Below, one piece after another: positions 14,211 to 47,447 of a DNA stretch of 57,491 nucleotides (its first letter is position 1; every line of letters starts with the position of its first letter). The notes beneath the pieces are model-generated. The model had not been told where the DNA came from. It saw only the letters and a list, made by a program, of their open reading frames with translations, and ran no database searches. The position numbers were made by a program, and so were the translations under genes. Source of the stretch: a virus. The stretch lies in IMG/VR virus record IMGVR_UViG_3300018081_000005, one strand, 5' to 3'.

Positions 14211-14252
14211 CAGATTCCCTCTCTAAAGGATCTTCATCAGGTTTGAAGCAAA

Positions 14253-20341: not shown

Positions 20342-20982
20342 TTCCCTCTCTCTTCCTTCCAGGATTGCACAGCATCTAGTAGGACTTCCCTTGCGCGGAT
20401 GAGAGTCTCGACTGACTCAGCAGCTTGGATAGGATTAGCTCCCGCCACCCGATTGTAAGGCTGGTCTCGCAGGACCACGAACGCCTTGGGGAACAAACGC
20501 TGGGCCTCTGCGTATAGCTCCGGTAAGTCCTCCAATACGCCTGCTACCCGCCAACCGGCTTGACGTCTCAGCTCGCGGTACTTGTCGTCTCCATATAGAA
20601 TGGCGTCATACTTGATCTTGTTACGTAACAACCATTCCCTGGTATCGGGGTCGATGCTATCTAGCCGCAAGTAGGGGCGGGTGGTGCAGATCCAAACCTC
20701 CGCACCCTTCCGGCGGATATCGGTTGCTAACTCCGCTGCACCCGGATAACAAGGCATGAACCGCTTAAGCCCGCCTTGACGATAGGCCAGCTTGCATTCA
20801 CGATACTGCCGCAATTGAACGCCCATGAACTTATGGAGCCGCATTCCCGGATTGATCTCATCAGACTTAGGCATGGGCTTGCCTAGCCATTGCTCCGCGA
20901 ACCAAAGGAAGTGGCCGTGGTAGTCGCCTAGCGTCCCGTCGATATCCAACGCCACTATAGGTTTGGTTCGCATAGGGATCAC
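20308..20982 (-). CDS. HAD-superfamily phosphatase (nucleotidase-like)
   Basis: Motif I ALDIDGTLGD, motif II ICTTRP and a C-terminal Asp region (GDDKY..). Substrate unknown. Confidence 0.65.
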   Translation of the reverse strand: MIPMRTKPIVALDIDGTLGDYHGHFLWFAEQWLGKPMPKSDEINPGMRLHKFMGVQLRQYRECKLAYRQGGLKRFMPCYPGAAELATDIRRKGAEVWICTTRPYLRLDSIDPDTREWLLRNKIKYDAILYGDDKYRELRRQAGWRVAGVLEDLPELYAEAQRLFPKAFVVLRDQPYNRVAGANPIQAAESVETLIRAREVLLDAVQSWKEERGKWIKELQITGL

Positions 20983-22377: not shown

Positions 22378-22628
22378 CCGTCATCTCTCCTAGCGCGATT
22401 ACGAGCGTCAACATCAGCAAGCCAATCTTCCATTGACATCGGCTCGAGGTAACCTTTGCAACGCGGCCCTTGATGGTGCGCCGAAAGTCTTACCAACGAC
22501 TGGTTAACGAATGTCGCATCCGGATACGGCTCGCAGCAACCAGGGAAAGGCGCATTCAACGCCACCATTACCACAGGCTCGCCGAAGCGTTCTACGGCAC
22601 GATTGGGGCGAGTACGTTTGGCCGACAT
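22374..22628 (-). CDS. Hypothetical protein
   Basis: ORF track (84 aa). RBS GAGAGAGGGAAC + 2 nt upstream of the ATG. Confidence 0.5.
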   Translation of the reverse strand: MSAKRTRPNRAVERFGEPVVMVALNAPFPGCCEPYPDATFVNQSLVRLSAHHQGPRCKGYLEPMSMEDWLADVDARNRARRDDG

Positions 22629-22665
22629 TGTTCCCTCTCTCGGTTCCTAACGTAATGCTACTCTC
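22629..22665 (-). promoter_or_regulatory. Candidate promoter with GAG-TAGCAT -10 element (no leader hairpin)
   Basis: Minus strand reads AACGAGAGTAGCATTACGTTAGGAACCGAGAGAGGGAACAATG, sharing the GAGTAnnnT core of the early promoters. The -35 is poor. Confidence 0.3.
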
Positions 22666-24712: not shown

Positions 24713-24768
24713 GGATTCCCTCTCTCGTAACAGGTAGCCTACCCGCTAGGCGGCCGTGGGGCTAGGTG

Positions 24769-25965: not shown

Positions 25966-25980
25966 TGGGTTCCCTCTCTA

Positions 25981-26034
25981 ACAACAAATCGGAAGGGGAG
26001 TGTCCGGACCCGACCGAACGGACACTCCCCTTCC
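25981..26034 (-). terminator. Rho-independent terminator (perfect 16-bp stem + U-rich tail)
   Basis: ggaaggggagtgtccg-12 nt-cggacactccccttcc (25991-26034). On the minus strand it is followed by GATTTGTTGTT, then the RBS of the nuclease gene. Confidence 0.7.
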
Positions 26035-26094
26035 TAGGCGCTGCTTCCGTCGGTGCGCTAGCAGGGGTGCGCAACCGGCCCTCGGGGGTGGGGC

Positions 26095-28921: not shown

Positions 28922-29715
28922 GACGCCACCGCATTCTTGGCTAGGTGGGGATAGCGCGCGTAGCAGGTTGGGCCCATCCCGCGCTTGACGCTCTCTGGGT
29001 TGGTAAGGAAGTGGCCGAACACACACCAACCGGTATTCTTGGTCAGCTCCTGAACTTCTTCCGCCGGCACCAATTCCGACTCCAGGATCTGGTAGATCAT
29101 TGAGCCCACGTAGGTAAGCGTGGGGCGCTTCTTAGCGCCATCCTTGGGGAACTCCACGAGCTTGGCGTATAGCCGGCCGGAGTCCTTCCCGAGTAGGCAC
29201 TGGAAGAGTGCGCCGCTCTGGTAGATCTGGCCGTGTACCACTACGGTACGGCTGAGCCGGTAGAGTCCTTCCTCGGTGGCGGTAGCCGGCTTATACCATG
29301 TCTCTACTGAAGCCTTCCGGCCCGCCTTGGCGCGCTCCTCGCGGTAGGTCTCCGTGCGGTCGCCCTCCGCTTCCATCCGCTGCATATCGCGCTCGTCCTG
29401 CTCGGTGAAAGCCCTTGCGGACGCACCCTTCAACGGGCATTGGAACGAATGGATAAGAATGGCCCCATCCGTAGCGGGATCCCCTCCACAAGTACAAACA
29501 GGAGCGGTCTGCGCGCATTCGCGGACGGCTTGGACGCTAGGGTGAGTCTGGCCGCAGTGCCCGCAATTGATAGTCATGGTATCCGCCTCTGGCTCAAAGG
29601 AAACTCCGGGGCAACGCCGTATCCCGCGCTGGGGGTCCCACCATTCGTGGGCTTCGTGATTGCGCCTAACCGTCTCTGCGAAGTAGCGCCAATCGCGGCA
29701 CTTAACGATCCGCAT
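28918..29715 (-). CDS. Cys-rich protein with DUF6011-like C-terminus
   Basis: ORF trimmed to ATG 29715. NCGHCGQTHPS...CTCGG clusters. C-terminal GWCVFGHFLTNPESVKRGMGPTCYARY resembles the C-x-x-C-G-x-x-L-T-D-P-x-S-x-x-x-G-x-G-P-x-C motif I recall for DUF6011. Confidence 0.5.
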   Translation of the reverse strand: MRIVKCRDWRYFAETVRRNHEAHEWWDPQRGIRRCPGVSFEPEADTMTINCGHCGQTHPSVQAVRECAQTAPVCTCGGDPATDGAILIHSFQCPLKGASARAFTEQDERDMQRMEAEGDRTETYREERAKAGRKASVETWYKPATATEEGLYRLSRTVVVHGQIYQSGALFQCLLGKDSGRLYAKLVEFPKDGAKKRPTLTYVGSMIYQILESELVPAEEVQELTKNTGWCVFGHFLTNPESVKRGMGPTCYARYPHLAKNAVAS

Positions 29716-29716
29716 G

Positions 29717-30049
29717 TCAGAACGCTTCCGCGTAGCGCGCGGCCGATACAAAACGGATCCGGAGGGTTTGGCCCGCGCGCTCTATCCGGTCTAGGATCTC
29801 TGCGTCTAGCGCTTCCTGCGGCGTACGGAGGCGCCGTTCCGGCCCGAACGGGTCGTGGTATCCCACGGCACACCAACTACTGGGATCCGCCGTGAGATAG
29901 TAGGCGGTAGCCTCCTCGATGAGCTCGTCTGAGGGTTCTAGGTACTCCGCTAGCCACTCGTCTCGCCCAAGATTCTCTACCAGCCGGTACTCGCCCCGGA
30001 ATACGTCCGCCTGGTAATCCCAGCGGTGGACGTCCCCAACCTTAGCCAT
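29717..30049 (-). CDS. Hypothetical acidic protein (110 aa from MAKVGDVHRW...)
   Basis: ORF 29717-30085 trimmed to ATG 30049, the start served by promoter/leader unit A. Confidence 0.5.
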   Translation of the reverse strand: MAKVGDVHRWDYQADVFRGEYRLVENLGRDEWLAEYLEPSDELIEEATAYYLTADPSSWCAVGYHDPFGPERRLRTPQEALDAEILDRIERAGQTLRIRFVSAARYAEAF

Positions 30050-30121
30050 CTCGGTCCCTCTCTCCGGAGCGCTCGCTCGCCCCACAACCCATACTCTACT
30101 CCACTGCGGTTCGGATGGCTA
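30050..30121 (-). promoter_or_regulatory. Early promoter + conserved 5' leader hairpin, unit A
   Basis: Minus strand: TAGCCA (30121-30116)-17 nt-TAGAGT (30098-30093). Hairpin GGGGCG-AGCGAG-CGCTCC (30083-30066). RBS AGAGAGGGA. ATG 30049. Confidence 0.55.
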
Positions 30122-30237
30122 CAGGCGTTTTAGTCGTTGGTACGTATGGAGGTCCTCGCGTAGTGGGCAAACTGGCTCTGGGGTGCATACCCGCCTAGGC
30201 TGCGGGTGGCAACCCACGTATGGCTTCGCTAGGCCGC

Positions 30238-30876
30238 TTAGATGGGCACTCCGTACTGGTTGCGTTGGATCCCCTTCAGCGCGTCCCGGTACGTGCACAG
30301 GAAGTCCTCCGCCATATCGGCGCTCAGCTGGAGTAACGCCGGAGGCCAGAAGTTACGTCCGACCCGCCCGTCGTAGACTCCGGCCGTCCGGCGCTCCCCC
30401 CACATAGCATCCCAGCCTAGCCGCGCGCCGGTGTGAAGGTAGATCTTGTCGGGCTCCAGCCGGAGGTAGGCGCCTATCCGCGTACCGACGTCATAAGTCG
30501 TCAACGGACCAATACCGGCCGGACGAATCTTCCGCAAGATGTCATAGAAGTCATCAAAGCTATTGCGTTCCACCAGATTGTTGACTAGCGACCCTACTTG
30601 GCCAATGATCTCCCAACCAAACTGGCGCCTGGCGCCTACGGATACTTTGGTCTGGTGCGAATGCATCTTCCCGTTCCGGCGCCTTGAGGCGCAAGCAATC
30701 CAAACCGCTTCCGCAAACGTGTCGGCCTCTGCACACATGGCGGGTATGTCATCCGCTTTGACGTCCATCCCGCCGCCCGGTGCACGTCGCCAAAGGAAGT
30801 CCCGGATACAAGCGTCCAGAGTATCCAAAGGCCAACGCGCCGGTCGCAATCGCATTTCCTTCTCGACGTTGGCCAT
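30238..30876 (-). CDS. Helix-hairpin-helix protein, possibly of the DNA-glycosylase superfamily
   Basis: IRPAGIGPLTTYDVGTRIGAYL is a GIGP-type HhH element. The rest is helical. No catalytic residues assigned. Confidence 0.45.
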   Translation of the reverse strand: MANVEKEMRLRPARWPLDTLDACIRDFLWRRAPGGGMDVKADDIPAMCAEADTFAEAVWIACASRRRNGKMHSHQTKVSVGARRQFGWEIIGQVGSLVNNLVERNSFDDFYDILRKIRPAGIGPLTTYDVGTRIGAYLRLEPDKIYLHTGARLGWDAMWGERRTAGVYDGRVGRNFWPPALLQLSADMAEDFLCTYRDALKGIQRNQYGVPI

Positions 30877-31133
30877 TACGCGCGCCGGTTCATGTAGGGT
30901 TCGGTGTCGTTGTCGACCTTCTCAACCGTCTGCACCCAGGAGTCCGGCAGGTCCTGCGTTCCCGCGAATGGGCGCGCATTCCAGCACCCATCCGATGACC
31001 CTGGCCCTAGATAGGTCATCACAGCCGTTCGGGCGTACTTCCAATTGGGAGCCTTGTAGGTAATGCGATACTTCTGCCCGGTCACCAGATCTTGCCCGGA
31101 TGGAGTAGGCGCGTGGGTCCGCTGGTCCATCAC
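30876..31133 (-). CDS. Hypothetical protein
   Basis: ORF track (85 aa). Start/stop coupled on both sides. Confidence 0.5.
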   Translation of the reverse strand: MMDQRTHAPTPSGQDLVTGQKYRITYKAPNWKYARTAVMTYLGPGSSDGCWNARPFAGTQDLPDSWVQTVEKVDNDTEPYMNRRA

Positions 31134-32047
31134 GCGGCCTTGGCCTTGCTCTTGCCTTGAGAGAGCGAAGCGAGGATCTGCTGCCGGATACGGTCCAGGT
31201 CTACCTTGCGCCCTACGTTCTCCAGGAGATCCAACCGGAAAGCGCGGAACCCGAACTCCGGGTCAACAAACGAAACGATCCGGTGACCCGCCCGGTGGTC
31301 GTCGATCCTGATTGACCGAGCGCGGCCAACAGTAGCCTTCTCGGAGTCCACCCTATACGGGTTGTGCCAGGAGATCTGATGCCCCTCAATTGCGTTGATG
31401 ATCTCCGTATCGGTAGCCGTGGCTAGGTCGAATGGGACCCTACGAACGGTAGGGCCGGTGGGGCGCTTCCGGAACTGCGTATTCCCGGAAACCTTTGCTT
31501 GCTTGGCCATAGCCTCGTCTGGTGTCTGGCCTGCCACCCGCATTGCTTCGGCCGGATTGCGTACCTTGACGGTCCGGTCCGCAATGGTGTGAGTACTGGT
31601 ACCGCTAACGTGGGCCTCCTTGAGCCAAGCCAGGTAAAGGGCTTCATTGCCGCGCGTAGCGACCAATTCGCAGAGGCCATCCAATCGGGTAACCCCCGAC
31701 ACCCATCCCAGCTTGGTCAATTCCTCGGCGTAATGGGCCGCCTTATCCGGCTTCGTATTGACGGGCTCCGGGGTGGCCATCGCCAACGCAGCCTCAGACT
31801 GCGTAGGTTGGCCGTGTTTCCCGGCATGGTTGCGCATCCGCAAGCATCCAGCCTTCGGGCATTGGTTTGCGGCGACAGCCGCGACGGTCTTGAAGACTGA
31901 ACGTTGGGACGGGACTGTGGCTACGGCCTCGCGGGCTAGCTCCAAATCCTCTTGCTTTGGCGGCAACGGAGTCCGCTGTGCAGCCTTGGTACGCTTGGCG
32001 GTAGCGGCGGCTCGTAAGCCACCCTTGCTTGCGATTGCGGTCGGCAT
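31130..32047 (-). CDS. Hypothetical protein (305 aa), basic N-terminus
   Basis: ORF track. RBS GAGAGGGAAC upstream. No family recognised. Confidence 0.5.
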   Translation of the reverse strand: MPTAIASKGGLRAAATAKRTKAAQRTPLPPKQEDLELAREAVATVPSQRSVFKTVAAVAANQCPKAGCLRMRNHAGKHGQPTQSEAALAMATPEPVNTKPDKAAHYAEELTKLGWVSGVTRLDGLCELVATRGNEALYLAWLKEAHVSGTSTHTIADRTVKVRNPAEAMRVAGQTPDEAMAKQAKVSGNTQFRKRPTGPTVRRVPFDLATATDTEIINAIEGHQISWHNPYRVDSEKATVGRARSIRIDDHRAGHRIVSFVDPEFGFRAFRLDLLENVGRKVDLDRIRQQILASLSQGKSKAKAA

Positions 32048-32086
32048 CTCAGTTCCCTCTCGAATGGTTTCTGGTGGGCTTGGGAG

Positions 32087-32272
32087 TTACGGACGGACTA
32101 GGGTCATGGAGCAGGTCTTGTACCCGCCAACGCCGCTGACGCCGGAGAACGAAGCCTCGCGCCATCCGTCCTTGGCTTGCGAATCGCGCCACTTGCGGGC
32201 ATTCTTCTTGCAGTTGACGCCACGGAATGTCTCCGTCCAGCGTTCGGTAGTGGTCGTGGGTTGCATTGTCAT
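32087..32272 (-). CDS. Hypothetical small protein
   Basis: ORF track (61 aa). RBS AGAGAGGAAA upstream of the ATG. Confidence 0.45.
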   Translation of the reverse strand: MTMQPTTTTERWTETFRGVNCKKNARKWRDSQAKDGWREASFSGVSGVGGYKTCSMTLVRP

Positions 32273-32279
32273 TTCCTCT

Positions 32280-32714
32280 CTAGAATTCGGGGCTCTGGTA
32301 GTAATCGCGGTGGCCTAGGGATAGGCCATCGCTTCCCTTTGGCGCCATGACGCGCCTACGGGTCTCGCGGCTGATGTAGGTCTTGCGTAGGCGCCCGTTC
32401 TTGTCCATGCGCCAGGTCTGTACCGGAGTATGGGCGTCCTCGTTGAAATGGATACAATCGGGACTAGGCTCGCTACAAATCTCCGTACTGGCCGGCGTGA
32501 TGTCGTAATCCTGCGCGGGCCAGACCTTCTTGTTGGCGCTGACGTGGTCTCCTCTGAGGTCAATCTCCTGGACCTTGCCGGCCCGGTCGTACCGGACGGC
32601 TACCACGGTGTATGGCTGACGGTCGGAGTACATGCAGACCGTAGCGCCCATTCCCACCACGATCTCCGGATAGCGGGAGTTCTCCATGATCCGGTTCACA
32701 ACAGATCCGTGCAT
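32280..32714 (-). CDS. Hypothetical protein (144 aa)
   Basis: ORF track. Served by promoter/leader unit B. Confidence 0.5.
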   Translation of the reverse strand: MHGSVVNRIMENSRYPEIVVGMGATVCMYSDRQPYTVVAVRYDRAGKVQEIDLRGDHVSANKKVWPAQDYDITPASTEICSEPSPDCIHFNEDAHTPVQTWRMDKNGRLRKTYISRETRRRVMAPKGSDGLSLGHRDYYQSPEF

Positions 32715-32790
32715 CTCATTCCCTCTCTCGCGTAGGCGGCTCGCTCCGCCAGACGTAACGTACGGTACTCGCTTTGATTGGTTATGGCTA
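32715..32790 (-). promoter_or_regulatory. Early promoter + conserved 5' leader hairpin, unit B
   Basis: TAGCCA (32790-32785, overlapping the upstream stop codon)-17 nt-TACCGT (32767-32762). Hairpin GGCGG-AGCGAG-CCGCC (32750-32735). RBS AGAGAGGGAA. ATG 32714. Confidence 0.55.
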
Positions 32791-33330
32791 GCTGGCGGCG
32801 GAATCTCTACGGCCCAGCTGGTACGCCTGCTCCAGGACTCGTACTAGCGCGGCACGGTTCCGGGAGTACTCGGAATCCCAACCGACCCCACCTTGGATTC
32901 CGCCCCCCAGGGTTGGCATTTCGTAAGACTTCATCCCAAGTTTGGCGGTCCACTCCTCCAGAGCGGCTTGGGAGGTTTCCGAACGCTTGGTCGCTGCCGC
33001 CAAGCGTTCCGCGCGGAGGCGCATCGTGGCGAGGTGCGAACTCCAAAGGTCGATCACATTGCGGCTCTTGATGACGGCCGTCCGGAAGCCATCTTCGGCC
33101 CGCTCGGGTTCGAGAGTATCGCGATCGAGCAGTTGGATCCGGACTCCGTCGCTGGTGGTCGAACTCGGACGGCGCAATGTCCACGACGCCCGACCCTTGT
33201 GGTTGAAGTTGTCTACCGCAACTCCGATCTCTACGACGATCGCGGGCTGAGCGGAAGCTTCCGCGCCCTCGTACATCGAGCCGATGACGACCGCGTAGGT
33301 CATTCCGGTCTTGATCTCGCTTCGCTTCAT
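32788..33330 (-). CDS. Hypothetical protein (180 aa from MKRSEIKTGMTY...)
   Basis: ORF 32788-33366 trimmed to ATG 33330, the start served by unit C. Confidence 0.5.
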   Translation of the reverse strand: MKRSEIKTGMTYAVVIGSMYEGAEASAQPAIVVEIGVAVDNFNHKGRASWTLRRPSSTTSDGVRIQLLDRDTLEPERAEDGFRTAVIKSRNVIDLWSSHLATMRLRAERLAAATKRSETSQAALEEWTAKLGMKSYEMPTLGGGIQGGVGWDSEYSRNRAALVRVLEQAYQLGRRDSAAS

Positions 33331-33405
33331 GACGGTCCCTCTCTCTCGGCGGGGCTCGCTCCCCACTCCAACGCCTACGGTACTCGGCCGTTTGGCGTAT
33401 GGCTA
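33331..33405 (-). promoter_or_regulatory. Early promoter + conserved 5' leader hairpin, unit C
   Basis: TAGCCA (33405-33400)-17 nt-TACCGT (33382-33377). Hairpin GGGG-AGCGAG-CCCC (33364-33351). RBS AGAGAGAGGGA. ATG 33330. Confidence 0.55.
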
Positions 33406-33568
33406 CCGTAGCACCAAGATTCTTTGCAGGAGATCCTTTGGTTGCGGCGCATGCGATCTAGAATCCTATGGGCAAACGCGAGGCTCGCTGGGTAACCGGG
33501 TACGTCTGTGGTCGCGACGCCCGTATGGCGTTCCTAGCCCACGCGGGATGCAGATAACGGAGGGTACG

Positions 33569-33594
33569 CAAAAGGGGCGCCTACTGGCGCCCCT
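33569..33594 (-). terminator. Rho-independent terminator
   Basis: aggggcgcc-tact-ggcgcccct (9-bp stem, tetraloop). On the minus strand it is followed by TTTTG. Confidence 0.6.
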
Positions 33595-33611
33595 CGCTAG
33601 ATCCGTTCCGG

Positions 33612-33743
33612 TCAGCCTAGGATCCGGACGGTTGCCACGATCACCATGGCTACCGCTACCCAGAAGAGGATAGCGAAGAGGCAGCCACTCATAGTGCCGC
33701 CAATACTCCGCTCGCCCCATTCCCTCTCAACATTCTTTCCCAT
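33612..33743 (-). CDS. Unlisted 43-aa membrane peptide candidate (..MSGCLFAILFWVAVAMVIVATVRILG)
   Basis: Hand translation. Third-position G/C is clearly higher than in the overlapping listed 84-aa ORF (33466-33720). Followed directly by a terminator. The internal ATG (MSGC...) may be the true start. Confidence 0.35.
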   Translation of the reverse strand: MGKNVEREWGERSIGGTMSGCLFAILFWVAVAMVIVATVRILG

Positions 33744-33787
33744 GCCTCTTATCCTAATGTAGGGAATTGGTTTTGGCTACAGTCACA

Positions 33788-33817
33788 AGAGGGCGAGTCC
33801 CCCGCAACTCGCCCTCT
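33788..33817 (-). terminator. Hairpin (10-bp stem) after the DUF2786 gene, no U-tract
   Basis: agagggcgag-10 nt-ctcgccctct. Confidence 0.35.
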
Positions 33818-33862
33818 ATAGCAACGACCAGCGTAGCCCTTTGGCGTACACCAGTCTTGCGC

Positions 33863-34918
33863 CTATCCCTCCAAGGCGCCGCGCGTACGGGGCGCGTCCG
33901 GACCGACGCGCTTGGCGGGAGCAACGCGGTCCAAGGGGACGTCTGCCGCTGCCGCGCGTCCGGCGCTCTGAGCCGCCAGACCGGTAGCGGAGTAACGACG
34001 GTCCCGTTCCTTCCGGTAGGCCGCAGTCTCCCAATAGGGCTTGGGCGTCCGCCCTTTCCTAGCCGGTGCCCTCTCGGGGATCGCCACGTCCGTCTTTGGC
34101 TGCGGGCGTAGCTCCGGGAACTCATCCCAGAGCGCTTCCTGAACGCGCTCCGTCCGTCCGTGGAGAACGAGCGCGCCTCCATTGGAGTCCGCTGCATCAC
34201 GAGCCGCGCAGAGGCGCCGGTCAAGCTCATCAACGAACGAGCGCGCGAACTCATCCCGGTAGAGAGCGGCGCTGATGCCGCGCCCATCTAGCGCCGGAGT
34301 CTCATTGCGAGCGGCGCATTCCTCCTTGTAGTACTTCCCTACCAGCGCCGCACGGGCATGGGAAGTCTCGCTCCAGATCAATTTGGCCGCCCGGTCGCGC
34401 GTTATACCAGCGCTGCGGAGCCGATAGGCGTTGGCCCGATCGCTGAGGTTCGGGTCTGGCTTAGGCTCTAACCGTTCCCCGAATACGATTCGGGCGTTGG
34501 CGGTGATGAGCTCGGCTAGCCGGAGATCACCGGAGTAGCCAACCATGACCGCCCAAATCCCGTACTCTCCGGTGTCGTGGTTGGTCTTCCAGCGGTAGTG
34601 CATCTTGACCCCGGAGTGGGTCGCCGCCGCGTAGGCCAGCGCATACCATTCCTGGTAGTAGCTACTCCCTGGCTTCTTGGTGGTAGCCCTAGTGGAGTCC
34701 TTCAGCGGCCCCAACCAGAGCTCGTGGACCTCAGGAAGGATCTCCACCTGATCGGAGGCGATCAAGTATTCCTCCGCGATCCGGTAGTCCCGCATCAGCT
34801 GCTCCGCCTTTGAGCGGAACGCTGTTGCCTCGTCCGGGAACTCGCTGGAGTCCGCCTTGGCTAGGAGTGCCTGCACCAAGGTCATGATCCGGTTAAGGTC
34901 AATCGTGGTAGTAGTCAT
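33863..34918 (-). CDS. DUF2786-family protein
   Basis: ORF trimmed to ATG 34918 (unit D). The N-terminus LNRIMTLVQALLAKADSSEFPDEATAFRSKAEQLMRDYRI matches the DUF2786 signature (K-x-x-x-L-L-A-K-A-E-S-T-x-F-x-x-E-A-E-A-F). Confidence 0.65.
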   Translation of the reverse strand: MTTTTIDLNRIMTLVQALLAKADSSEFPDEATAFRSKAEQLMRDYRIAEEYLIASDQVEILPEVHELWLGPLKDSTRATTKKPGSSYYQEWYALAYAAATHSGVKMHYRWKTNHDTGEYGIWAVMVGYSGDLRLAELITANARIVFGERLEPKPDPNLSDRANAYRLRSAGITRDRAAKLIWSETSHARAALVGKYYKEECAARNETPALDGRGISAALYRDEFARSFVDELDRRLCAARDAADSNGGALVLHGRTERVQEALWDEFPELRPQPKTDVAIPERAPARKGRTPKPYWETAAYRKERDRRYSATGLAAQSAGRAAAADVPLDRVAPAKRVGPDAPRTRGALEG

Positions 34919-34990
34919 CTCGGGTCCCTCTCTGCAGCGGCTCGCTCCGCTCGCACTCCGTACGGTACTCCACTGCGGTCCGGAAGTAAA
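34919..34990 (-). promoter_or_regulatory. Early promoter + conserved 5' leader hairpin, unit D (first after the late terminator)
   Basis: TTTACT (34990-34985)-17 nt-TACCGT (34967-34962). Hairpin AGCGG-AGCGAG-CCGCT (34951-34936). RBS AGAGAGGGA. ATG 34918. Confidence 0.55.
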
Positions 34991-34997
34991 GGGCGAT

Positions 34998-35039
34998 GGC
35001 CCCTCCTGTACGTGGTTGCGAGTCACCACAGGAGGGGCC
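34998..35039 (-). terminator. Strong hairpin ending the late (structural + lysis) block
   Basis: ggcccctcctgt ... acaggaggggcc forms a perfect 12-bp outer stem, with inner gtggt/accac pairing possible. It lies about 105 nt after the holin stop and immediately upstream of promoter D. Confidence 0.6.
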
Positions 35040-35143
35040 ACCAAGGTCTGGGGGAACGGTAGGGGAGAGGGAACTACCCATGCCCGTTCGACCGCGCCAG
35101 GCCCACCGTAGGGAACGGTACCTCACGCCGGAATCTGGCGCTA

Positions 35144-35368
35144 CTAGTTAGGACCGGACTCAGGCTCCTCCTCCGGCGGGTAGGCATTGACGTGTCCAGC
35201 GGCAACCAGACCCGCCAGGCCGGCTAAGTAGGTCACCAATTCAGTGACCGCATCCGCCGCGTCAACGGCCCAGGGAGACGGAATGTGCTTCAGCACAATT
35301 GCCGCGCCTGCGAGGACGATGGTGATCAAGTAGATGGTCTTTCGGACGTTCGGACTATCGGTGAACAT
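35144..35368 (-). CDS. Holin candidate (two TM helices, acidic C-terminus)
   Basis: IYLITIVLAGAAIVL and LVTYLAGLAGLVAAG TM segments. 74 aa. Last gene of the lysis cassette. Confidence 0.6.
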   Translation of the reverse strand: MFTDSPNVRKTIYLITIVLAGAAIVLKHIPSPWAVDAADAVTELVTYLAGLAGLVAAGHVNAYPPEEEPESGPN

Positions 35369-35380
35369 AGCGCTCCATTC

Positions 35381-35803
35381 CTACGTTATATCGGGCCGAG
35401 TCCTAGCTCCATTGCCCTTACGTCTCGGTAGCGTACCGGCCGCTGGTCGGCCGCCCGGGGAGGGATGCCATTGAATGTGAGTTTCGAGATCAGCCCGGAT
35501 GGCGGTTGACTCGGTTCGCAACCGGGCCACTTCAACTTGCAGCAGTTTGATCTCGGAACGTAGACTGGTAACCTCTGGTGAAATGAGGATTCCCTCGTCG
35601 TCGTATTCAGCCGGCTTCCCGAGAAGGTCGTCAATCCCTCGATCGAACCGACGAAACGTACGAACGCCACGTTTCCACATAGGACGTATCACCTTCCGGT
35701 ATACCCATCCTAGAACCGTACCGAGCGCTATCAGCGCTCCGCACACTACGCCAACCGTCCTCCACCAGTCTTCGCTGAATGACCTCCACGCATCCGCTAG
35801 CAT
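35381..35803 (-). CDS. N-terminally anchored membrane protein with coiled coil (lysis-associated)
   Basis: TM segment TVGVVCGALIALGTVLGWV, then a coiled-coil segment SLRSEIKLLQVEVARLRTE. Confidence 0.5.
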   Translation of the reverse strand: MLADAWRSFSEDWWRTVGVVCGALIALGTVLGWVYRKVIRPMWKRGVRTFRRFDRGIDDLLGKPAEYDDEGILISPEVTSLRSEIKLLQVEVARLRTESTAIRADLETHIQWHPSPGGRPAAGTLPRRKGNGARTRPDIT

Positions 35804-40075: not shown

Positions 40076-42400
40076 CTATCCAACATTCTCGTCGTAGTCT
40101 ACTAGCGTCAGGACGAATCCGAATGGGTACAGTACCGAGTCCGCATTGTAGTCCACGCCGACATCACCCAAACTAGCAAAGATCCTACGGCCGGTGTAAT
40201 CTCTCCAAAGCACTACGCCGGTGGTCAAGGCCAACGCTTCCAACTCTTGCGGTTCCGAGGACATCCCGCCCCGGCTTGGCGGGTACAGGACTCCTTGTGT
40301 GTCCAGGACCAATCGAGTTGCTTCCCCGGAGAGCTCGACCGGGTTTGCTCGCCCGGCGAAATGATAGGTGTCCTTATCGCGCCCAACGGTAGCTCGGTTC
40401 GACAAACGCGCCCGCATTCGAGCAATATCGGTAAAGCTGCTGCCAGTACTAAGGAATCCCCAATGCTCCTCGGCGGTTGTAACGGCTACTTCACCACTCA
40501 ACGCAGACGAGGCTCCGGTCGAGAGGATAATGGCGCGATAGTTATTGATGCCCCGAATTGTTGGCATGGTATCAGTCACAATAGCCACTAGCGGAGTCCC
40601 CGCCAGAGGGACGCCCGTGACCCAAGTCGCCCATTCACCGCCGTTGATCTGGCGCTGGAGGTCCACGCTGGCAATTGGTAGCGTCACGCCCCCCACAGCA
40701 TCGGCACCGGTGATCATGATGACCATTCGGCCCCAATCAGCCGTATAGCTAGCCGTGAGGGTGACACCAGCCGGCGGCAGATAGGTAACCAGGAACTCTT
40801 CGCGCTCGGTCCCGGATGCAATAGATTGCAACCCTACGGCGCTGGTAACATACACACGGACGCCGTAAGTTTCACCATCAAGCAACGTTGCGCCGAACGT
40901 TACGGATGCGGTGGTTCCAGTCCCCGCTTGTTCATCTACTAACGTCGCATCGCTGAAGTCGGACAAAGCACCTTTGCGCCATAGATAAGCGTGCCAAGCC
41001 GCTTGCGCGCTGCTTTGGGCTTGGAAATACGTCCAATCGGCAGTCAGCGTTGAAGTCGCATACGAGCCGCCGGACGGGCTCGATATCGTTGAGGTCGGCC
41101 GCGCGCTAGTGGTGAACGAAGCATCAGCGGAGTAAGCCCCGATTGTACCGTTCTCGCCGGCCGTCGCAACATGCCAAGTAATCGTGTGGCCATTGGTGAG
41201 CGTAGCGGCCGTCAATGTAAACGAGGATGTCCCGGAAACCGTTGGGCCTACAGTGGTATACGAACCGGCATCTATCTTGTATTGGAGTTGGTACTTGCTC
41301 TGTGGCGTTCCGTCAGTTGGATTGTGAGTCCAAGTAAAGACGATTGCTTCAGCGGCGTCAAGCGCGTTACCTGACGGAGCGAGAGCAGTTGGCGGTCCTG
41401 CCGTGCTCAATAGGACGATGGTCGCGGACTCATTGGAGTAGCTAGAGTTCAGCGTTGTCCCGGAGCTAGTTCGCGCCCGGATCCGGTACTTATGAGTGAC
41501 GGCCGGGTTTGGGGCAACGTGATCCCACGTCGTAGTTCCGGTGGCTACGTTAGTGATTTCGGTATACGCTCCGCCGTTCTGCGACTCCTCAATCCTAACT
41601 GTATATTCGGAGTAGTTGACGTTATTGGTCCACGTTAACCGGATGTTACCGCCGCCAAGTTTGGTCGCCACCAAAGATGTCGGAGTGCCGGGCGTAGTCC
41701 AGATTGCCGCAGCGGTCGCGTATCCGACCTCAACACCGTTAGGGCCATTTGCAGACACCCGATATACGTACTTATGGTTCGCAGAGGTAGTTGTGTCGCT
41801 GTAGGACGTCACCACGCCCAACGTAGCGATAAGCGCGTATCCGCCTCCGTCGGCCGAACGATACACTTTGACGTTGGAGTACGGCGCGTTCCCGGTACTA
41901 TTGTTGGTCCAGTTGACCGTATGCTGCGTATCGCTAACTCGTGTTACGGTACAAGAAGTTGGCGAAGCAACGGTTTGCGGGATCTGTGGTAGTGCGGTAG
42001 ACAAGCTAGCGGTTGACGTCGCGCCGGATGAACCGTGGTGCGAGCCCGACATACTTATGTTGCCATTACCATTCACATCATGGTTGATGACAAACTGCCC
42101 GCTCCCGAACCCACCCTGGGCGATCGTATTGACGAATGGGTAATCTCCGGAGTGCGAGTGCCCGCTGTTGAAGACGTGTGGAAGAGAATTGCTATAGACC
42201 GAACTGCTGTTGATGGCTACCGAACCAGCTTCGATCCGGTGGCATCCATCCCCGGGCGCGAAGTTAACGGCCCAACACCAGTTAACGGTGGAAGTCCCAT
42301 ATCCTGCGCCGCCGGTGTAACTCTGTCCGGCCAACCACCAGAAGATCCGGTTTTTGCCATTGAAGACATCGTTGCCTCCAGTAGCTTCGCCGCCGGTCAT
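40076..42400 (-). CDS. Minor tail protein with fibronectin type III repeats and Dit-like C-terminal region
   Basis: At least three FN3-like units (e.g. CTVTRVSDTQHTVNWTNN...YRVSANG and LVATKLGGGNIRLTWTNN...YRIRART). Immediately follows the tape measure with a 4-nt overlap. Confidence 0.75.
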   Translation of the reverse strand: MTGGEATGGNDVFNGKNRIFWWLAGQSYTGGAGYGTSTVNWCWAVNFAPGDGCHRIEAGSVAINSSSVYSNSLPHVFNSGHSHSGDYPFVNTIAQGGFGSGQFVINHDVNGNGNISMSGSHHGSSGATSTASLSTALPQIPQTVASPTSCTVTRVSDTQHTVNWTNNSTGNAPYSNVKVYRSADGGGYALIATLGVVTSYSDTTTSANHKYVYRVSANGPNGVEVGYATAAAIWTTPGTPTSLVATKLGGGNIRLTWTNNVNYSEYTVRIEESQNGGAYTEITNVATGTTTWDHVAPNPAVTHKYRIRARTSSGTTLNSSYSNESATIVLLSTAGPPTALAPSGNALDAAEAIVFTWTHNPTDGTPQSKYQLQYKIDAGSYTTVGPTVSGTSSFTLTAATLTNGHTITWHVATAGENGTIGAYSADASFTTSARPTSTISSPSGGSYATSTLTADWTYFQAQSSAQAAWHAYLWRKGALSDFSDATLVDEQAGTGTTASVTFGATLLDGETYGVRVYVTSAVGLQSIASGTEREEFLVTYLPPAGVTLTASYTADWGRMVIMITGADAVGGVTLPIASVDLQRQINGGEWATWVTGVPLAGTPLVAIVTDTMPTIRGINNYRAIILSTGASSALSGEVAVTTAEEHWGFLSTGSSFTDIARMRARLSNRATVGRDKDTYHFAGRANPVELSGEATRLVLDTQGVLYPPSRGGMSSEPQELEALALTTGVVLWRDYTGRRIFASLGDVGVDYNADSVLYPFGFVLTLVDYDENVG

Positions 42401-45400
42401 TGAGCTTCCACCAACCCTCTCCGGCTATCGTTACGCAGACGGTCAATGAAGTCGAGCAAGTCTTGGACATCACGGATCGAACGCAAGTCATCCAACGGAA
42501 CGTTAATGTTGACCTCGGTGTTACTTGTATTGTTCGAGCCCGCTGATCCTACTCCGCTGGCCCCGCCCATCCCGGCCGACAACCCAGCGCCGCTAGTGGC
42601 CGTTCCTACCGTGGCAGAGAAGTCGGTCGGTAGGGCTCCGGAGACCCCCGCCAAGGCGCGGGCGGCAGCGGTCTGTACCATACCGATACGATCTTCCATT
42701 CCTTCCGCGAAGCCCTCCATCAGAGCGCGCCCAGCATACAAGGTGTATCCACGGCCGGAGAATGGACCCCACTTAGCGGGCGAGAATGGCAATAACCCGC
42801 GCAGTTGGGCCATCTTATCTTGCACCCATCCAATAATGCTGCCCCAGATTGATTGCAGGCCATTCCACAGCCCTTGGAGCAAGGACCGGCCGGCACCGAA
42901 GAGCGCAGATCCAAGATTCCCCAGCGCACCAATCAGCCGACCGGGCAATCCCTGGACCCAGTTGATGAGTTCTTGAGCCTTGGCAATCGCCGCGTCCTTC
43001 ATCTGGTTGAAGATATCGCGGGCTCTGTTGACTATCTCGCTGAAGTTGTTGACGATTGAGACAACTTTGTTACGGGCATTGGTAAAGGAAGCTACAACAG
43101 CATCCCAAACAGCCTTGACTACGCTAAGGACCTCGGACATACGAGCCGAAATCCAGTCCTTAACGAAGTTGAAAGCTGCAACGATGGGGACAACAATCCA
43201 TCCCCACAGAGCATTCCAGATCCCACGGACAGCGGACGCGAAATCAGATAGCTTGCCCCCGATCCAAGAAAGCCCTGCGCCGACTACGTCAATGATAGCC
43301 TTGAATCCAACGGAGACCGGTACGATGATGAACTTCCAGAGCGCATCCCAGATAGCCGTCACGCCAGCCCAGAAGGCTTGGAACAAGCTACTGATGACGG
43401 TAAAGGCCAGTCCGACTATCGCGGCGATAAGGTCGAAGACCGCCTTTGTTACCGGCCAGAGGAAGTTCCACACGGCCATGAACCGAGAAACCCAAGCCTC
43501 GACAACGGCCATGAGTGTCTCGAAGACGAACTTGCCAACCTGGAAGATCGCATAGAACGGCGCGATCACAACGGCCGCAATGACCTTCCCTATGGTCATC
43601 AGGACATTGATGAAGCTCTTGAAGCCGGCGACTAGACCTGGGATAGCGGATATCACCGCCGCTATAACGGAAATCAGAACCGAGAAGATAGGCCCGATGA
43701 TGTTCAGGAGCAGCGGGATGATGAATCCCAATGCCTTACCCAGAACGTTGAAGATAACCTTGCCGACTTCAAGGAACGCTTTAGCGATTGCAATGATCGT
43801 GGGCATGGCCGGCTCGATAGCCGCTCGCAACTTCTGCCACGCCGGTAGCACTCGGTTCTGAATGAAATCCCCGATCGCCTTAAATGCAGGCGCCAGGTTC
43901 TTCATCAAGGTCTGAGCGATTTCCTTGACTGCGGGAACGACTTGATTCTTGAAGAATTCGGCTATTGGCCTAACCACCGCAAGGATGGTCGCAAAGATCT
44001 CCTTGGCCACCCGACCGAGGTTGCCGAGCAGATCTCGAAATTGCTGGCTGTTGTCATACGCTAGCTTGACGGCGGCCGCAATCCCAATGATGACCGCAAT
44101 GATGCCGCCAATGATGGCCGCTATCTTGATAGCGGCAACTGAGGCCGCCAGCCCAGCTATCACCGCTCCCACGCCGGCGATAACCGCAATCAGACCAAAC
44201 AAGGCCGCGCCGGCAACGGCAGCGAATGCGATCAGCTTCTGCCACTTGGGGTCTAGCGCGCTGAACTTGTTGACGAGCATAGTGATGAACTCGGCTGCGG
44301 CGCGAATGGCCGGCAAGAGCGCGGTCCCAAAGGCGATAGCAGCCGTCTCGACGCTTCCCTTGAGTTGCTCGATCGCTCCTGAGACGTTGTCCAGCCTAGC
44401 GGCCGCCACGTCTTGAGCGGAGACTTCGCCCATGGCGGTAGCCATCGCGTTGAAGGCTTCGGCGCCTCCACCGGCGATAACCGCTGCCGCCCGAATCGCA
44501 TCGCTTCCGAAGATGACTTCGAGCGCCATTGCCTTCTGCGCATCGGTCATACCCGCCAAGGACTTGTTCAGGATCCCGGCGACGTCAGAAAGCGACTTTA
44601 GCTTGCCGTGTTGGTCGAAGAACTTATTGGTACCGTCAGCGGTGACGATGCCAAGTTTCCTCATCAGGTCGGTTTGCTTCTTGGTACTCGGCTGAAGGTT
44701 TTGGAGCATTGTCTTCAGCGAGGTCCCGGCATCCGATCCCTTGATCCCGGCGTTCCCCATTAGCGCGATTGCGACTGCTAGGTCATCAAAGCTCACGCCA
44801 ACAAGGTTCGCCACCGCACCGGCCTGGCTTAGCGCGAACCCGAACTCCCCCACGTCAATGGCAGAGGAGTTAGCCGCACCGGCAATCAGGTCGGCGATCC
44901 TCGGAAGGTCCGAGGCCGCCAGCGAGAACTGGTTCATCGCATTGGAGGCAATGGCCGCCGCCGCCGGTAGGTCAATCCCGCCCGCTGCCGCTAGCGCGAC
45001 GGTAGCATCGGCCGCTCCATTGAGGACATCCTCAACAGACAGGCCGGCCTTGACCAACTCCTCCATTGCTTGCGCGGATTCGCTAGCGGAGAACGCCGTA
45101 TCGGCACCGAGTTGGAGCGCCTTCTTGCGTAGCTGATCCATCTGGTCTGCGGTAGCACCAGAGACCGCACCAATAGCAGAGATTCGCTTCTCAAAGTCAA
45201 TCGCCGCATTGACAGCGAACCCAATGCCGGCAGCAATAGCCGCTCCGGCTACCGCTGAAGCCGTAGCTACCTGCAGCAGCCCTTGGCGGGCGCTGGCCAG
45301 CGATCCGCCCCCTCCGCCGCTACCGGAGCCCGTAAAGCGTCCGAGGTCGTCACGCGCTTGGCCGATTCCCTTACCGTCATAATCGATCTTGATCTTACCT

Positions 45401-45429
45401 TCAGCGGAGCCAAGACTGTAATCGGCCAT
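42397..45429 (-). CDS. Tape measure protein
   Basis: 1010 aa, Ala/Gly/Ile-rich helical with a long hydrophobic central region. Canonical position after the chaperone pair. Confidence 0.9.
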   Translation of the reverse strand: MADYSLGSAEGKIKIDYDGKGIGQARDDLGRFTGSGSGGGGGSLASARQGLLQVATASAVAGAAIAAGIGFAVNAAIDFEKRISAIGAVSGATADQMDQLRKKALQLGADTAFSASESAQAMEELVKAGLSVEDVLNGAADATVALAAAGGIDLPAAAAIASNAMNQFSLAASDLPRIADLIAGAANSSAIDVGEFGFALSQAGAVANLVGVSFDDLAVAIALMGNAGIKGSDAGTSLKTMLQNLQPSTKKQTDLMRKLGIVTADGTNKFFDQHGKLKSLSDVAGILNKSLAGMTDAQKAMALEVIFGSDAIRAAAVIAGGGAEAFNAMATAMGEVSAQDVAAARLDNVSGAIEQLKGSVETAAIAFGTALLPAIRAAAEFITMLVNKFSALDPKWQKLIAFAAVAGAALFGLIAVIAGVGAVIAGLAASVAAIKIAAIIGGIIAVIIGIAAAVKLAYDNSQQFRDLLGNLGRVAKEIFATILAVVRPIAEFFKNQVVPAVKEIAQTLMKNLAPAFKAIGDFIQNRVLPAWQKLRAAIEPAMPTIIAIAKAFLEVGKVIFNVLGKALGFIIPLLLNIIGPIFSVLISVIAAVISAIPGLVAGFKSFINVLMTIGKVIAAVVIAPFYAIFQVGKFVFETLMAVVEAWVSRFMAVWNFLWPVTKAVFDLIAAIVGLAFTVISSLFQAFWAGVTAIWDALWKFIIVPVSVGFKAIIDVVGAGLSWIGGKLSDFASAVRGIWNALWGWIVVPIVAAFNFVKDWISARMSEVLSVVKAVWDAVVASFTNARNKVVSIVNNFSEIVNRARDIFNQMKDAAIAKAQELINWVQGLPGRLIGALGNLGSALFGAGRSLLQGLWNGLQSIWGSIIGWVQDKMAQLRGLLPFSPAKWGPFSGRGYTLYAGRALMEGFAEGMEDRIGMVQTAAARALAGVSGALPTDFSATVGTATSGAGLSAGMGGASGVGSAGSNNTSNTEVNINVPLDDLRSIRDVQDLLDFIDRLRNDSRRGLVEAQ

Positions 45430-46689: not shown

Positions 46690-47244
46690 CTAGACGATTG
46701 CGGTTGCGGTCTCGTTCTGGACCAGGTCCCAAACGACTCCGAAGTCGGCGCCCACGATGAGGCAGCCCAAGCCCTGACCGGACGCGCCCGTCAGGAAGAA
46801 CTGACCATCCGCGAATTCGCCGCTGAAGTCGTCGGTCGCCTTACAGCGCCAAACGACCGCGTGGAAGTCGCCGCCGGAGTCTGAGATGACCTGGCCTTCG
46901 ACGCGGAAGTACGGACGCTGATCCGTCTTGAGTTTCCGGAGTCGCTTGATCTGGTTGGGAGTTGTGCCGGTCAGCGTGAGAGTTCCGCCGTACATGGCCT
47001 GTACGGCTTCCAAGCTAACGCCTCCGCCTTCCAACTCCCAGTTGACAATCGGACCATTGCCATGGGTGGCGACCAGACTGTCATCGCCGCGCAGTTCCTC
47101 GAAATCCTCGGTCTCTGCGAACGAGAACGTCCGGCTGTTCGGCAAGTCAATCCGAGACGCCGACAGAACCGTTGCCGTAGCATCGGTATACGGTGTGATC
47201 TTCACATCCCGCAGGCCGAAGGGCAATGGGATGGGCATCGTCAT
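46690..47244 (-). CDS. Major tail protein
   Basis: Position and size (184 aa). N-terminal FGLRDVKITPY...FSFAETEDFEELRGDD pattern resembles siphophage major tail proteins. Confidence 0.7.
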   Translation of the reverse strand: MTMPIPLPFGLRDVKITPYTDATATVLSASRIDLPNSRTFSFAETEDFEELRGDDSLVATHGNGPIVNWELEGGGVSLEAVQAMYGGTLTLTGTTPNQIKRLRKLKTDQRPYFRVEGQVISDSGGDFHAVVWRCKATDDFSGEFADGQFFLTGASGQGLGCLIVGADFGVVWDLVQNETATAIV

Positions 47245-47447
47245 AGCCTTGCTCCCTCCTTTTGTTGTCTTGCGGCCGACGAGACGGGATCCCGGAACCG
47301 CTTGTCGTCGAGACGCTCACCAGTAAGCGTCCAACGGTGGATCACCACCACCCCGCTACCAGCACCACAGAAACGCGACGAGCATTTGATCTCGATGACG
47401 CCATCGAGGATCTCGCCGTGCTTCTTGTTCTGGCAACGGACGTCCAT
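47241..47447 (-). CDS. Small Com-like zinc-finger protein
   Basis: MDVRCQNKKHGEILDGVIEIKCSSRFCG has a C-x4-H...(I)EIKC-x4-C layout reminiscent of the Mu Com Zn ribbon. TAGATG junction with the upstream gene and ATGA with the downstream gene. Confidence 0.45.
   Translation of the reverse strand: MDVRCQNKKHGEILDGVIEIKCSSRFCGAGSGVVVIHRWTLTGERLDDKRFRDPVSSAARQQKEGARL

Follow-up and report, generated by a model that had tools for sequence, protein, structure and literature searches.

Repeated early-region cassettes of a predicted promoter and a conserved-loop, covarying-stem leader hairpin in an uncultured actinobacteria-type phage

Four short intergenic cassettes of an uncultured actinobacteria-type phage (IMG/VR virus record IMGVR_UViG_3300018081_000005; the whole stretch of 57,491 nucleotides, or 57.5 kb, with 59% G+C and all genes on the minus strand, is called the window here) join a promoter-like element to a short leader hairpin with the loop AGCGAG and a ribosome-binding sequence. 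Comparison with homologous cassettes in related phages indicates that this hairpin is a folded RNA under selection rather than a duplex operator, with the stem apparently being selected for pairing only and the closing G-C pair and loop for sequence. A reading made earlier from the letters of this DNA (the original prediction) had proposed four units of one architecture, and all four were found at the predicted places as minus-strand cassettes of 75-79 nucleotides (nt) at 34916-34990, 33328-33405, 32712-32790 and 30047-30121. Each consists of a -35 hexamer (TTTACT at 34985-34990, or TAGCCA at 33400-33405, 32785-32790 and 30116-30121), a spacer of exactly 17 nt ending in GAG, a -10 hexamer (TACCGT in three cassettes and TAGAGT in one), 8-11 nt up to the first paired base, a stem of 5-7 base pairs (bp), the loop AGCGAG, a further 1-6 nt, AGAGAGGGA, 5-6 nt and ATG. 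The promoter-like pairs that had been proposed at a fixed distance upstream are thereby recovered with their 17-nt spacing and their 8-11 nt to the hairpin. The parts of the four cassettes are as follows.

34962-34990, minus strand: putative promoter of cassette 1, TTTACT (34985-34990), 17 nt ending in GAG, TACCGT (34962-34967).
34936-34951, minus strand: hairpin of cassette 1, AGCGG / AGCGAG / CCGCU, minimum-energy fold, covariance-model match of 25.9 bits.
34925-34933 and 34916-34918, minus strand: AGAGAGGGA of cassette 1, read as its Shine-Dalgarno sequence (SD), and ATG of the gene for a 351-amino-acid (aa) DUF2786 protein (33863-34918).
33377-33405, minus strand: putative promoter of cassette 2, TAGCCA-N17(..GAG)-TACCGT, an exact pattern match.
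33349-33366, minus strand: hairpin of cassette 2, GUGGGG / AGCGAG / CCCCGC, minimum-energy fold, model match of 28.0 bits.
33328-33344, minus strand: AGAGAGGGA (SD) and ATG of cassette 2, before the gene for a 180-aa protein (32788-33330); the cassette is kept in the L069 and L070 orthologues.
32762-32790, minus strand: putative promoter of cassette 3, TAGCCA-N17(..GAG)-TACCGT, with a -35 that overlaps the stop codon of the upstream gene.
32735-32750, minus strand: hairpin of cassette 3, GGCGG / AGCGAG / CCGCC, minimum-energy fold, model match of 27.8 bits.
32712-32728, minus strand: SD and ATG of cassette 3, before the gene for a 144-aa protein, which opens a unit of five genes (32714 down to 30238).
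30093-30121, minus strand: putative promoter of cassette 4, TAGCCA-N17(..GAG)-TAGAGT, with a spacer identical to that of cassette 1 at 16 of 17 positions.
30065-30084, minus strand: hairpin of cassette 4, UGGGGCG / AGCGAG / CGCUCCG, with one G.U and one U.G pair, minimum-energy fold, model match of 28.8 bits.
30047-30063, minus strand: SD and ATG of cassette 4, before a 110-aa ORFan (29717-30049), with genes for a DUF6011 protein and an SNF2 helicase next in order.

A covariance model built on 21 hexaloop copies was run with filters off across the whole window and returned exactly the four cassettes (25.9-28.8 bits, all on the minus strand), the next-best match scoring 15.5 bits with E = 0.34. 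The pattern TAGCCA-N17-TANNGT, with at most one mismatch, matched six times against 1.5 expected, and none of 100 shuffles reached six. The sequence AGCGAG by itself is not enriched (39 sites against 38.6 expected), and Rfam covariance models gave no match at E <= 1 on either strand of 29500-35400. A degenerate fifth copy, proposed at 33480-33545, could not be upheld, as it has no stem and was missed by the model, and its AGCGAG is not kept in relatives; the rejected segment sits inside a conserved non-coding spacer.

Relatives were found by pattern scans and by protein search with the 351-aa DUF2786 protein, resulting in six related metagenomic phage contigs (cited by handles such as L063). 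Their proteins are 68-78% identical to those of the window, with a distant relative, L065, at 38%; a seventh contig, L071 (42% identical), has a DUF2786 homologue without such a hairpin. A loop-agnostic census of hairpins standing just before an SD and a start codon yielded about 30 further cassettes in the relatives. All copies are on the coding strand, with four to seven per genome, and in the four relatives covered over a long enough stretch they lie in a block of 5-6 kb that follows the structural genes. The original prediction had suggested a covariance-model search of this genome and its relatives; the model gave the four matches in the window, and the copies in relatives show compensatory stem changes.

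Covariation was scored on 28 distinct hairpins aligned in register with their loops padded with N. In this stem-filtered set the closing pair is G-C in 28 of 28 hairpins, and 139 of the 140 cells of the inner five pairs are paired. Pair 9-20 is C-G in 15 hairpins and G-C in 13, and pair 8-21 is G-C in 17 and C-G in 11; the fourth inner pair is G-C in 17, C-G in six, G.U in three and U.G in one, with one mismatch, while the fifth is G-C in 22, A-U in three, and C-G, G.U and U.G in one each. The resulting covariation score of 0.559 compares with 0.189 for shuffles, none of 500 of which reached it, and with at most 0.15 when the partner was slid. Conservation of sequence is confined to eight bases (G-AGCGAG-C). 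The same turnover is seen at a single locus: orthologues of cassette 1, before the same DUF2786 gene, have other stems that are still complementary, the series being AGCGG/CCGCU, GGGGCG/CGCCCC, GGCGG/CCGCC, GGGCGG/CCGCCC and GGGCG/CGCCC. Variable but paired stems around a conserved loop had been taken as a sign of selection on a folded single strand, and the covariation in about 30 homologous cassettes supports this. Because the copies are all on the coding strand and G.U exceeds C.A among the non-Watson-Crick inner cells (six against one, read on the sense strand), the selected form would be RNA rather than cruciform or duplex DNA.

A second comparison made no selection for a stem and took every AGCGAG in the family contigs, whatever its flanks. 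Of 22 sense AGCGAG sites before an SD and a start codon, 16 carry a stem of 5 bp or more, whereas a stem of at least 4 bp was found at only 1 of 36 antisense sites (Fisher p ~1e-8). The remaining sense sites have a 7-nt loop or a single mismatch, except for one true negative. RNAalifold, applied to 24 whole leaders with no structure given, predicted solely the same 5-bp stem and hexaloop, with compensatory changes in four of the five pairs and the SD unpaired. An antisense or kissing partner was also considered and is unlikely, with a stem at 0 of 12 plus-strand AGCGAG sites.

The loop had been described as invariant. This is true of the four copies in the window; across the 34 copies of the census, six variant loops occur besides AGCGAG.

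AGCGAG: 23 of 34 copies.
ACGAG: 3 of 34 copies.
AAGCGAG: 2 of 34 copies.
UAGCGAG: 2 of 34 copies.
AGAGAG: 2 of 34 copies, in the distant relative.
UUGCGAG: 1 of 34 copies.
AGGGACUA, unrelated: 1 of 34 copies, in an orthologous hairpin with an unchanged stem.

A terminal GAG followed by the closing C is constant in 33 of the 34 loops, the sole exception being AGGGACUA; judged from these copies, the loop is strongly, not absolutely, conserved. Cassette 3 illustrates both kinds of change, its orthologue in L064 having the 7-nt loop AAGCGAG and that in L063 the stem GGGGCG/CGCUCC. Exact-hairpin scans of IMG/VR with GGCGGAGCGAGCCGCC and GGGCGAGCGAGCGCCC returned, outside the clade, only unrelated and mostly coding contexts.

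The genes behind the cassettes are a changing set. At least 12 unrelated protein families are headed by cassettes, and several families are unique to one genome. An extra ORFan (29717-30049) is inserted in the window between cassette 4 and the DUF6011-type gene, which is directly preceded by the cassette in four relatives, and a near-identical copy of the cassette 4 promoter and hairpin is present in L063 at 14645. The original prediction had the units serving small genes of unknown function after the late terminator. An ORFan block after the structural/lysis terminator was indeed found; the description as small does not fit its first gene, which encodes 351 aa.

34918 to about 29700, minus strand: block of genes of unknown function, after the structural/lysis genes and before the replication genes.

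Three -35/-10 types occur before the same hairpin and gene (TAGCCA-N17-TACCGT, TTTGCG-N17-TACGCT and TTCCCA..TGGAG-TAGCGT). All promoters have G[GC][AC]G-TAnnnT in common, and in 28 of the 34 copies 8-11 nt separate its end from the first paired base. The cassette 1 promoter is kept in L063, L067 and L068 as TTTACT-N17-TAGCGT. By comparing L069 (12230-12310, TTTGCA-N17-TACGCT) with L070 (4780-4860, TAGCCA-N17-TACCGT), which have the same hairpin, SD and gene, the sequences were found to be identical from just past the -10, suggesting a recombination joint at the -10. In Actinobacteria, TAnnnT is the accepted form of the -10, and transcription usually starts 6-8 nt past it. Given a distance of 8-11 nt between the -10 and the hairpin, the hairpin would begin at about +1 to +5. 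Promoter activity, this start of transcription and immediate-early timing are predictions from sequence. Promoter and hairpin are separable, since one further promoter-like element has no hairpin.

33751-33779, minus strand: hairpin-less putative promoter TAGCCA-N17-TAGGAT, with one mismatch to the pattern, kept in L064.

This element stands 7 nt before the ATG (33743) of an open reading frame (ORF) for a 43-aa membrane protein (33612-33743, minus strand), resulting in a nearly leaderless predicted transcript. In L069 and L070, the small ORF at the position of this 43-aa ORF has an 8-bp hairpin with the loop ACGAG. A GAG-TAGCAT -10-like element is also seen at about 22655-22663 (minus strand), 14 nt before the SD of a gene starting near 22626.

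The early units come after terminator-like hairpins.

34998-35039, minus strand: terminator-like hairpin (GGCCCCUCCUGU...ACAGGAGGGGCC) ending the structural/lysis genes, kept in L063 and L064.
33789-33816, minus strand: terminator-like hairpin, recognised from its sequence.
33569-33593, minus strand: strong intrinsic terminator, GGGGCGCC-agua-GGCGCCCC-UUUUG, after the 43-aa ORF, kept in L063 and L064.

Within 34985-35039 (minus strand), the T-rich tail of the first of these enters the -35 of cassette 1 (TTTACT), an arrangement kept in L063, L067 and L068. Because the tail extends into the -35, terminator and first early promoter appear to be fused as one element. A simple promoter/terminator scan missed the cassette promoters as well as obvious terminators, including that at 34998-35039. 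A long terminator hairpin (GGAAGGGGAGUGUCCG...CGGACACUCCCCUUCC and a U-rich tail) was also noted at about 25985-26040 (minus strand), immediately ahead of the gene at 25965. Cassettes 2 and 4 are preceded by a conserved non-coding spacer of about 100-170 nt (33400-33575 and 30115-30245, minus strand; 11640-11860 in L063 and 11590-11790 in L064), placed between a strong terminator and the next promoter. It contains the blocks CTAG..GCCATACG, CGG(T/G)TATGCA and GTTTGCCCA, and may encode a small RNA or bind a regulator.

The purine-rich ribosome-binding sequence had been counted as a part of the cassette. However, AGAGAGGGA occurs in nine exact copies in the window, each standing 3-6 nt ahead of an ATG on the minus strand, and five belong to no cassette.

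14216-14224, 20343-20351, 22632-22640, 24717-24725 and 25971-25979, minus strand: copies of AGAGAGGGA outside cassettes.

AGAGAGGGA is the genome-wide ribosome-binding sequence of the phage. A base-pairing check showed 8 possible pairs, two of them G.U, between AGAGAGGG and the usual 3' end of 16S rRNA, and we read AGAGAGGGA as a probable extended SD.

A counterpart of the cassettes exists in isolated phages. Gordonia phage GOATification (L118, OR521062.1) has three cassettes with the loop AGAGC, the loops starting at 9770, 11402 and 13827. Their stems are GGAGCG/CGCUCC, GAGCAGG/CCUGCUC and CCGAGGG/CCCUUGG, and the hairpins start 8-10 nt past a TAGGnT -10 and lie 9-11 nt before the SD. In Lambovirus-type phages (also L122, L123 and L124), the loop is AGAGC wherever the cassette is present in the three examined besides DumpTruck, which has another loop at one locus; Apeppi shows one orthologous stem with two compensatory changes (CCGGGAG/CUCCUGG). 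Like the cassettes of the window, those of Lambovirus occupy an ORFan block between lysis genes and helicase, follow the order of promoter, 8-10 nt, variable stem, fixed loop and SD, and contain the sub-motif GAGC. By contrast, their loop is a 5-nt AGAGC, their promoter is CCTA(C/G)TAGGGTAGGnT and their SD is another, and the covariance model of the window gives them only 12-14 bits. Several early genes of Nocardia phage P3.1 are preceded by leader hairpins, with unrelated loops, and no recurring loop was found in Mycobacterium phage Leopard, which is remotely related through the first early gene. Before the DUF2786 homologue of P3.1 (L120, MW582532.1), at about 10370-10445, stand GGTAGGGTATACT, a 15-bp hairpin (GGAAGGCGTGACCGG-atgg-CCGGTTGCGCCTTCC) and an SD. 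The patterns in P3.1 and Leopard, set against those in Lambovirus, suggest that the promoter-hairpin-SD layout is old in the lineage while the fixed loop is clade-specific. The literature that we searched contains no description of the window element or of the Lambovirus cassettes.

Taken together, we give about an even chance to the interpretation that the cassettes are early promoters with a protective 5' hairpin whose loop serves as a recognition tag for a trans-acting factor. Each cassette would be an early promoter for host RNA polymerase (sigma-A type), and its transcript would start with a G+C-rich hairpin of 5-7 bp about 1-5 nt from the 5' end, with an unpaired extended SD following 1-9 nt later. 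In a first layer, the hairpin and strong SD would shield early mRNAs from 5'-end-dependent decay (of the RNase E, RNase J or RppH type), and the hairpin would insulate the SD from variable upstream sequence. In a second layer, the loop and closing pair would be read by one trans-acting factor, phage- or host-encoded, that would control the early ORFan transcripts as a group; bound 1-9 nt from the SD, it could hinder or help binding of the 30S subunit or change stability. Since the modules of about 75 nt resemble one another, they may also serve as recombination joints for swapping early genes. Protection of mRNA by 5'-terminal stem-loops and strong SDs is represented among the references of PMC3997798 by ompA, papA, the aprE leader and a polypurine 5' stabiliser. 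A protective role is favoured here by the P3.1 leaders, in which only the stem is conserved, by the position of the hairpin near the predicted 5' end and by a strong SD that stays unpaired, and the promoter-hairpin-SD order is kept where the loop is not conserved, in P3.1 and at the family G locus (L069/L070). A trans-acting reader was added because protection explains neither a fixed loop amid stem turnover nor the different loop of the second clade. A more specific version, in which the loop is an address label and one phage protein co-evolving with it (AGCGAG here, AGAGC in Lambovirus) switches all early ORFan mRNAs, is put forward tentatively, as a possibility that we think more probably wrong than right; if true, it would amount to an N/boxB- or coat-protein-like regulon switch in this phage group, for which we know of no post-transcriptional temporal control.

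Several observations weigh against this interpretation. The 28 hairpins of the covariation set were chosen with a stem filter, which inflates the percentage of paired cells, and the unbiased test and RNAalifold offset this only partly. The hairpin is the minimum-energy structure in all four cassettes, with folding energies at z = -0.1 to -0.7 against shuffles. Because these energies are no better than those of shuffled sequence, the evidence for selection is comparative and one genome alone would be insufficient; thermodynamic z-scores are uninformative for hairpins so short and G+C-rich. A promoter scan of E. coli type found none of the cassette promoters (its consensus is that of E. coli, not actinobacterial), so that the case for promoters is built on conservation and on the TAnnnT rule of Actinobacteria. 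A copy in L064 at 9971 lies only 4 nt past its -10 and hence cannot be a complete 5'-terminal hairpin made from that promoter; it is probably an internal hairpin of the upstream unit. In the orthologous pair of L069 (ACGAG) and L070 (AGGGACUA), the same stem carries a wholly different loop, and the family G gene of the window is without any hairpin, indicating that the loop is dispensable at least at the family G locus. Finally, Pfam, PHROGs and PDB sequence searches revealed no candidate RNA-binding protein in the window.

The closest competing explanation holds that the hairpin is a purely cis-acting 5' stabiliser or insulator to which nothing binds, with a loop conserved for closing a short stem well. 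The position of the hairpin 8-11 nt past the -10, the unpaired SD and the unrelated loops of leader hairpins in related phages would all suit it, and A[GCGA]G and A[GAGA]G could fit a GNRA tetraloop closed by an A.G pair, with G-N-R-A appearing in five of the six variant loops. Many stable loops exist, however, and yet a single sequence is held across repeatedly changed stems; moreover, ACGAG has no GNRA and the second clade fixes the non-GNRA loop AGAGC, which looks like recognition specificity, and we regard a purely cis-acting element as rather unlikely. Were it correct, the cassettes would still provide a clean natural case of covarying leader hairpins and of shuffling-joint cassettes outside the T4 group. 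Antitermination of the nut/boxB kind, in which the nascent hairpin would modify RNA polymerase, with a phage protein or alone, for passage through terminators within and beyond the early block, could account for a short G+C stem and a purine-rich, GNRA-like loop just past early promoters, and terminator-like hairpins do lie downstream (33789-33816 and 33569-33593, with others before the genes at about 25980 and about 14240). This is nevertheless improbable: the leaders contain no boxA-like motif and leave no space for a boxA ahead of the hairpin, searches recognised no N-like protein, each unit has a putative promoter of its own, and the hairpin always adjoins the SD, which antitermination would not need.

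An element acting as DNA, whether a recombination hot spot, the target of a structure-specific or DNA-binding protein (as speculated for the stem-loop modules of T4-type phages discussed below) or an asymmetric operator, would agree with the location of the cassettes at mosaic joints, where non-homologous genes stand downstream and promoter types are exchanged upstream. The strict strand polarity, the occurrence of G.U rather than A.C wobbles and the fixed distances to the -10 and SD argue against it, eight conserved bases are few for an operator, no recombinase or repressor was recognised, and the shuffling may be a by-product of sequence similarity; we judge it quite improbable. For a ribonuclease processing site, cut by RNase III in the stem or by RNase E 5' of the loop C and serving to time decay or to split read-through transcripts, it can be said that mycobacterial RNase E cuts immediately 5' of cytidines (PMC10641625) and that the loop has a single C among purines. 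Cassette 3 also lies within a possible read-through transcript. Since the variant AGAGAG has no C and RNase III typically acts on longer stems, such a site is very improbable. That the hairpin has no function beyond the promoter, the similarity being left over from recent duplication of one cassette, is scarcely credible: cassettes 1 and 4 do share 16 of 17 spacer bases, but neutral decay would lose the loop before making paired stem changes, and the opposite is seen in 34 copies from seven genomes.

The preferred interpretation, a protective hairpin with a loop that tags early transcripts, bears on a poorly understood subject, as temporal control in actinobacteriophages is little known save for repressors and stoperators in a few clusters. 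Here a compact motif marks one class of predicted transcripts, those of the early ORFan and presumed host-takeover genes. Because a counterpart exists in cultivable Gordonia phages, the hypothesis is directly testable. If the loop is a protein tag, it would represent a new phage RNA-protein recognition pair and a handle on early genes and promoters in uncultured actinophages, and the modules might be useful as portable promoter-leader parts for Actinobacteria.

The genome in which the cassettes are embedded reads as follows on the minus strand.

55346-56863, minus strand: terminase, at the start of the gene order.
42397-45429, minus strand: longest ORF of the structural region, 1,010 aa; the structural region runs down to about 35.1 kb.

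After the ORFan block comes a replication and nucleotide-metabolism module with an SNF2 helicase, a PD-(D/E)XK nuclease, an AAA ATPase, PHP and DnaE-like polymerase, ThyX and a primase-polymerase. Two separate ORFs make up the DnaE-like polymerase, a polymerase core of 754 aa (14572-16836) and a PHP domain of 302 aa (16830-17738), both on the minus strand and overlapping by 7 nt; it is annotated as a single gene of about 3.2-3.3 kb in GOATification and P3.1. No integrase, repressor or sigma factor was recognisable among the genes of the window. In its terminase the phage shares about 47% identity with Nocardia phage P3.1 and with the Gordonia Lambovirus phages, and the gene order is common to all. 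DNA-level searches of the region, near and distant, against GenBank phages gave no match, and the phage family is known from metagenomes only. Isolate genomes contained no relative of the first early gene (351-aa DUF2786 protein), and prophages therefore offer no clue to the host.

Among known systems, the promoter-early stem-loop (PeSL) cassettes of T4-type phages had been named as an analogue. In these, the stem-loop is a terminator or attenuator for upstream transcription, and its position relative to the promoter is variable (PMC2839356). The two share repeated intergenic modules of about 75-100 nt that combine an SD and a G/C stem-loop with an early promoter of host type, strong and sigma-70-like in PeSL cassettes and predicted here, and both lie among ORFans in a plastic early region, where they mark gene exchange. 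The analogy holds for the shuffling of genes, with at least 12 unrelated families behind the cassettes here, and fails for terminator function and variable hairpin position. In the window the hairpin is always in the leader downstream of the -10, with a conserved loop, covarying stems and no U-tract; no T-run follows the cassette hairpins, and a terminator scan did not flag them. PeSL cassettes are without a conserved loop, and their host and phage lineage are unrelated. Another comparison is with the start-associated sequences (SAS) and extended SAS (ESAS) of Cluster K mycobacteriophages, SAS being a short asymmetric motif of unknown function, in one orientation, at the translation starts of some non-structural genes (PMC3203893). 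Half of the Cluster K SAS carry an added inverted repeat just upstream, and the ESAS arms are imperfect repeats of 17 bp, conserved in sequence around a variable spacer (PMC3203893). This is the reverse of the arrangement here, where arms of 5-7 bp vary and the loop is conserved. AGAGAGGGA is alike in kind to the Cluster K sequences and unlike them in sequence; the SAS 13-mer GGGATAGGAGCCC is absent from the window, with 21 matches at up to 3 mismatches against 24 expected.

The boxB of Lambda-type nut sites has a 5-bp G+C stem and a small purine-rich loop, and specificity is set by the loop and closing pair. The cassettes likewise would place a short G+C stem and small purine-rich loop in nascent RNA past early promoters. 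By contrast, they have no boxA and no N-like protein, their hairpin stands at the predicted 5' end beside the SD, and they are present in four to seven copies rather than two. No boxA-like motif was found in the leaders, the only nearby match overlapping the -35 of cassette 1, upstream of the predicted transcript; no Pfam or PHROG family of N-type antiterminators was detected among the early proteins, a search that small disordered proteins could escape. In the coat-protein operators of MS2 and PP7, the thrS operator of E. coli and the Com/mom system of Mu, a protein bound to a loop-specific hairpin near the ribosome-binding site controls initiation. Those translational operators serve single genes, whereas here one motif stands before many unrelated genes. 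The Com/mom analogy had also been drawn for this element, and it breaks down in that the hairpin does not sequester the SD: in the consensus fold neither the SD nor the start codon is paired, and both lie beyond the conserved hairpin. Nor could a Com-type protein be detected. The supposed Com-like zinc-finger gene at 47241-47447 (minus strand) is a 68-aa Cys/His-containing ORF in the structural gene block that matches phrog_5278 (unknown function, E = 9e-17); searches with it gave neither a Pfam family at E <= 10 nor a BLASTP alignment to the presumed sequence of Mu Com.

With the 5'-terminal stabilisers, of which ompA, papA and aprE are listed in PMC3997798, the cassettes share a stem-loop a few nt from the predicted 5' end and a strong ribosome-binding site behind it. 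Differences from the CIR (conserved inverted repeat) operators of phiC31 are that the arms here are not conserved in sequence and that no repressor was recognised. The CIR operators are a 17-bp inverted repeat of conserved sequence bound by the phage repressor. For 5'-terminal stabilisers, we know of no particular loop that is needed and of none repeated as a family across a regulon. The cassettes resemble a cross between PeSL and a loop-specific RNA operator and are a member of neither.

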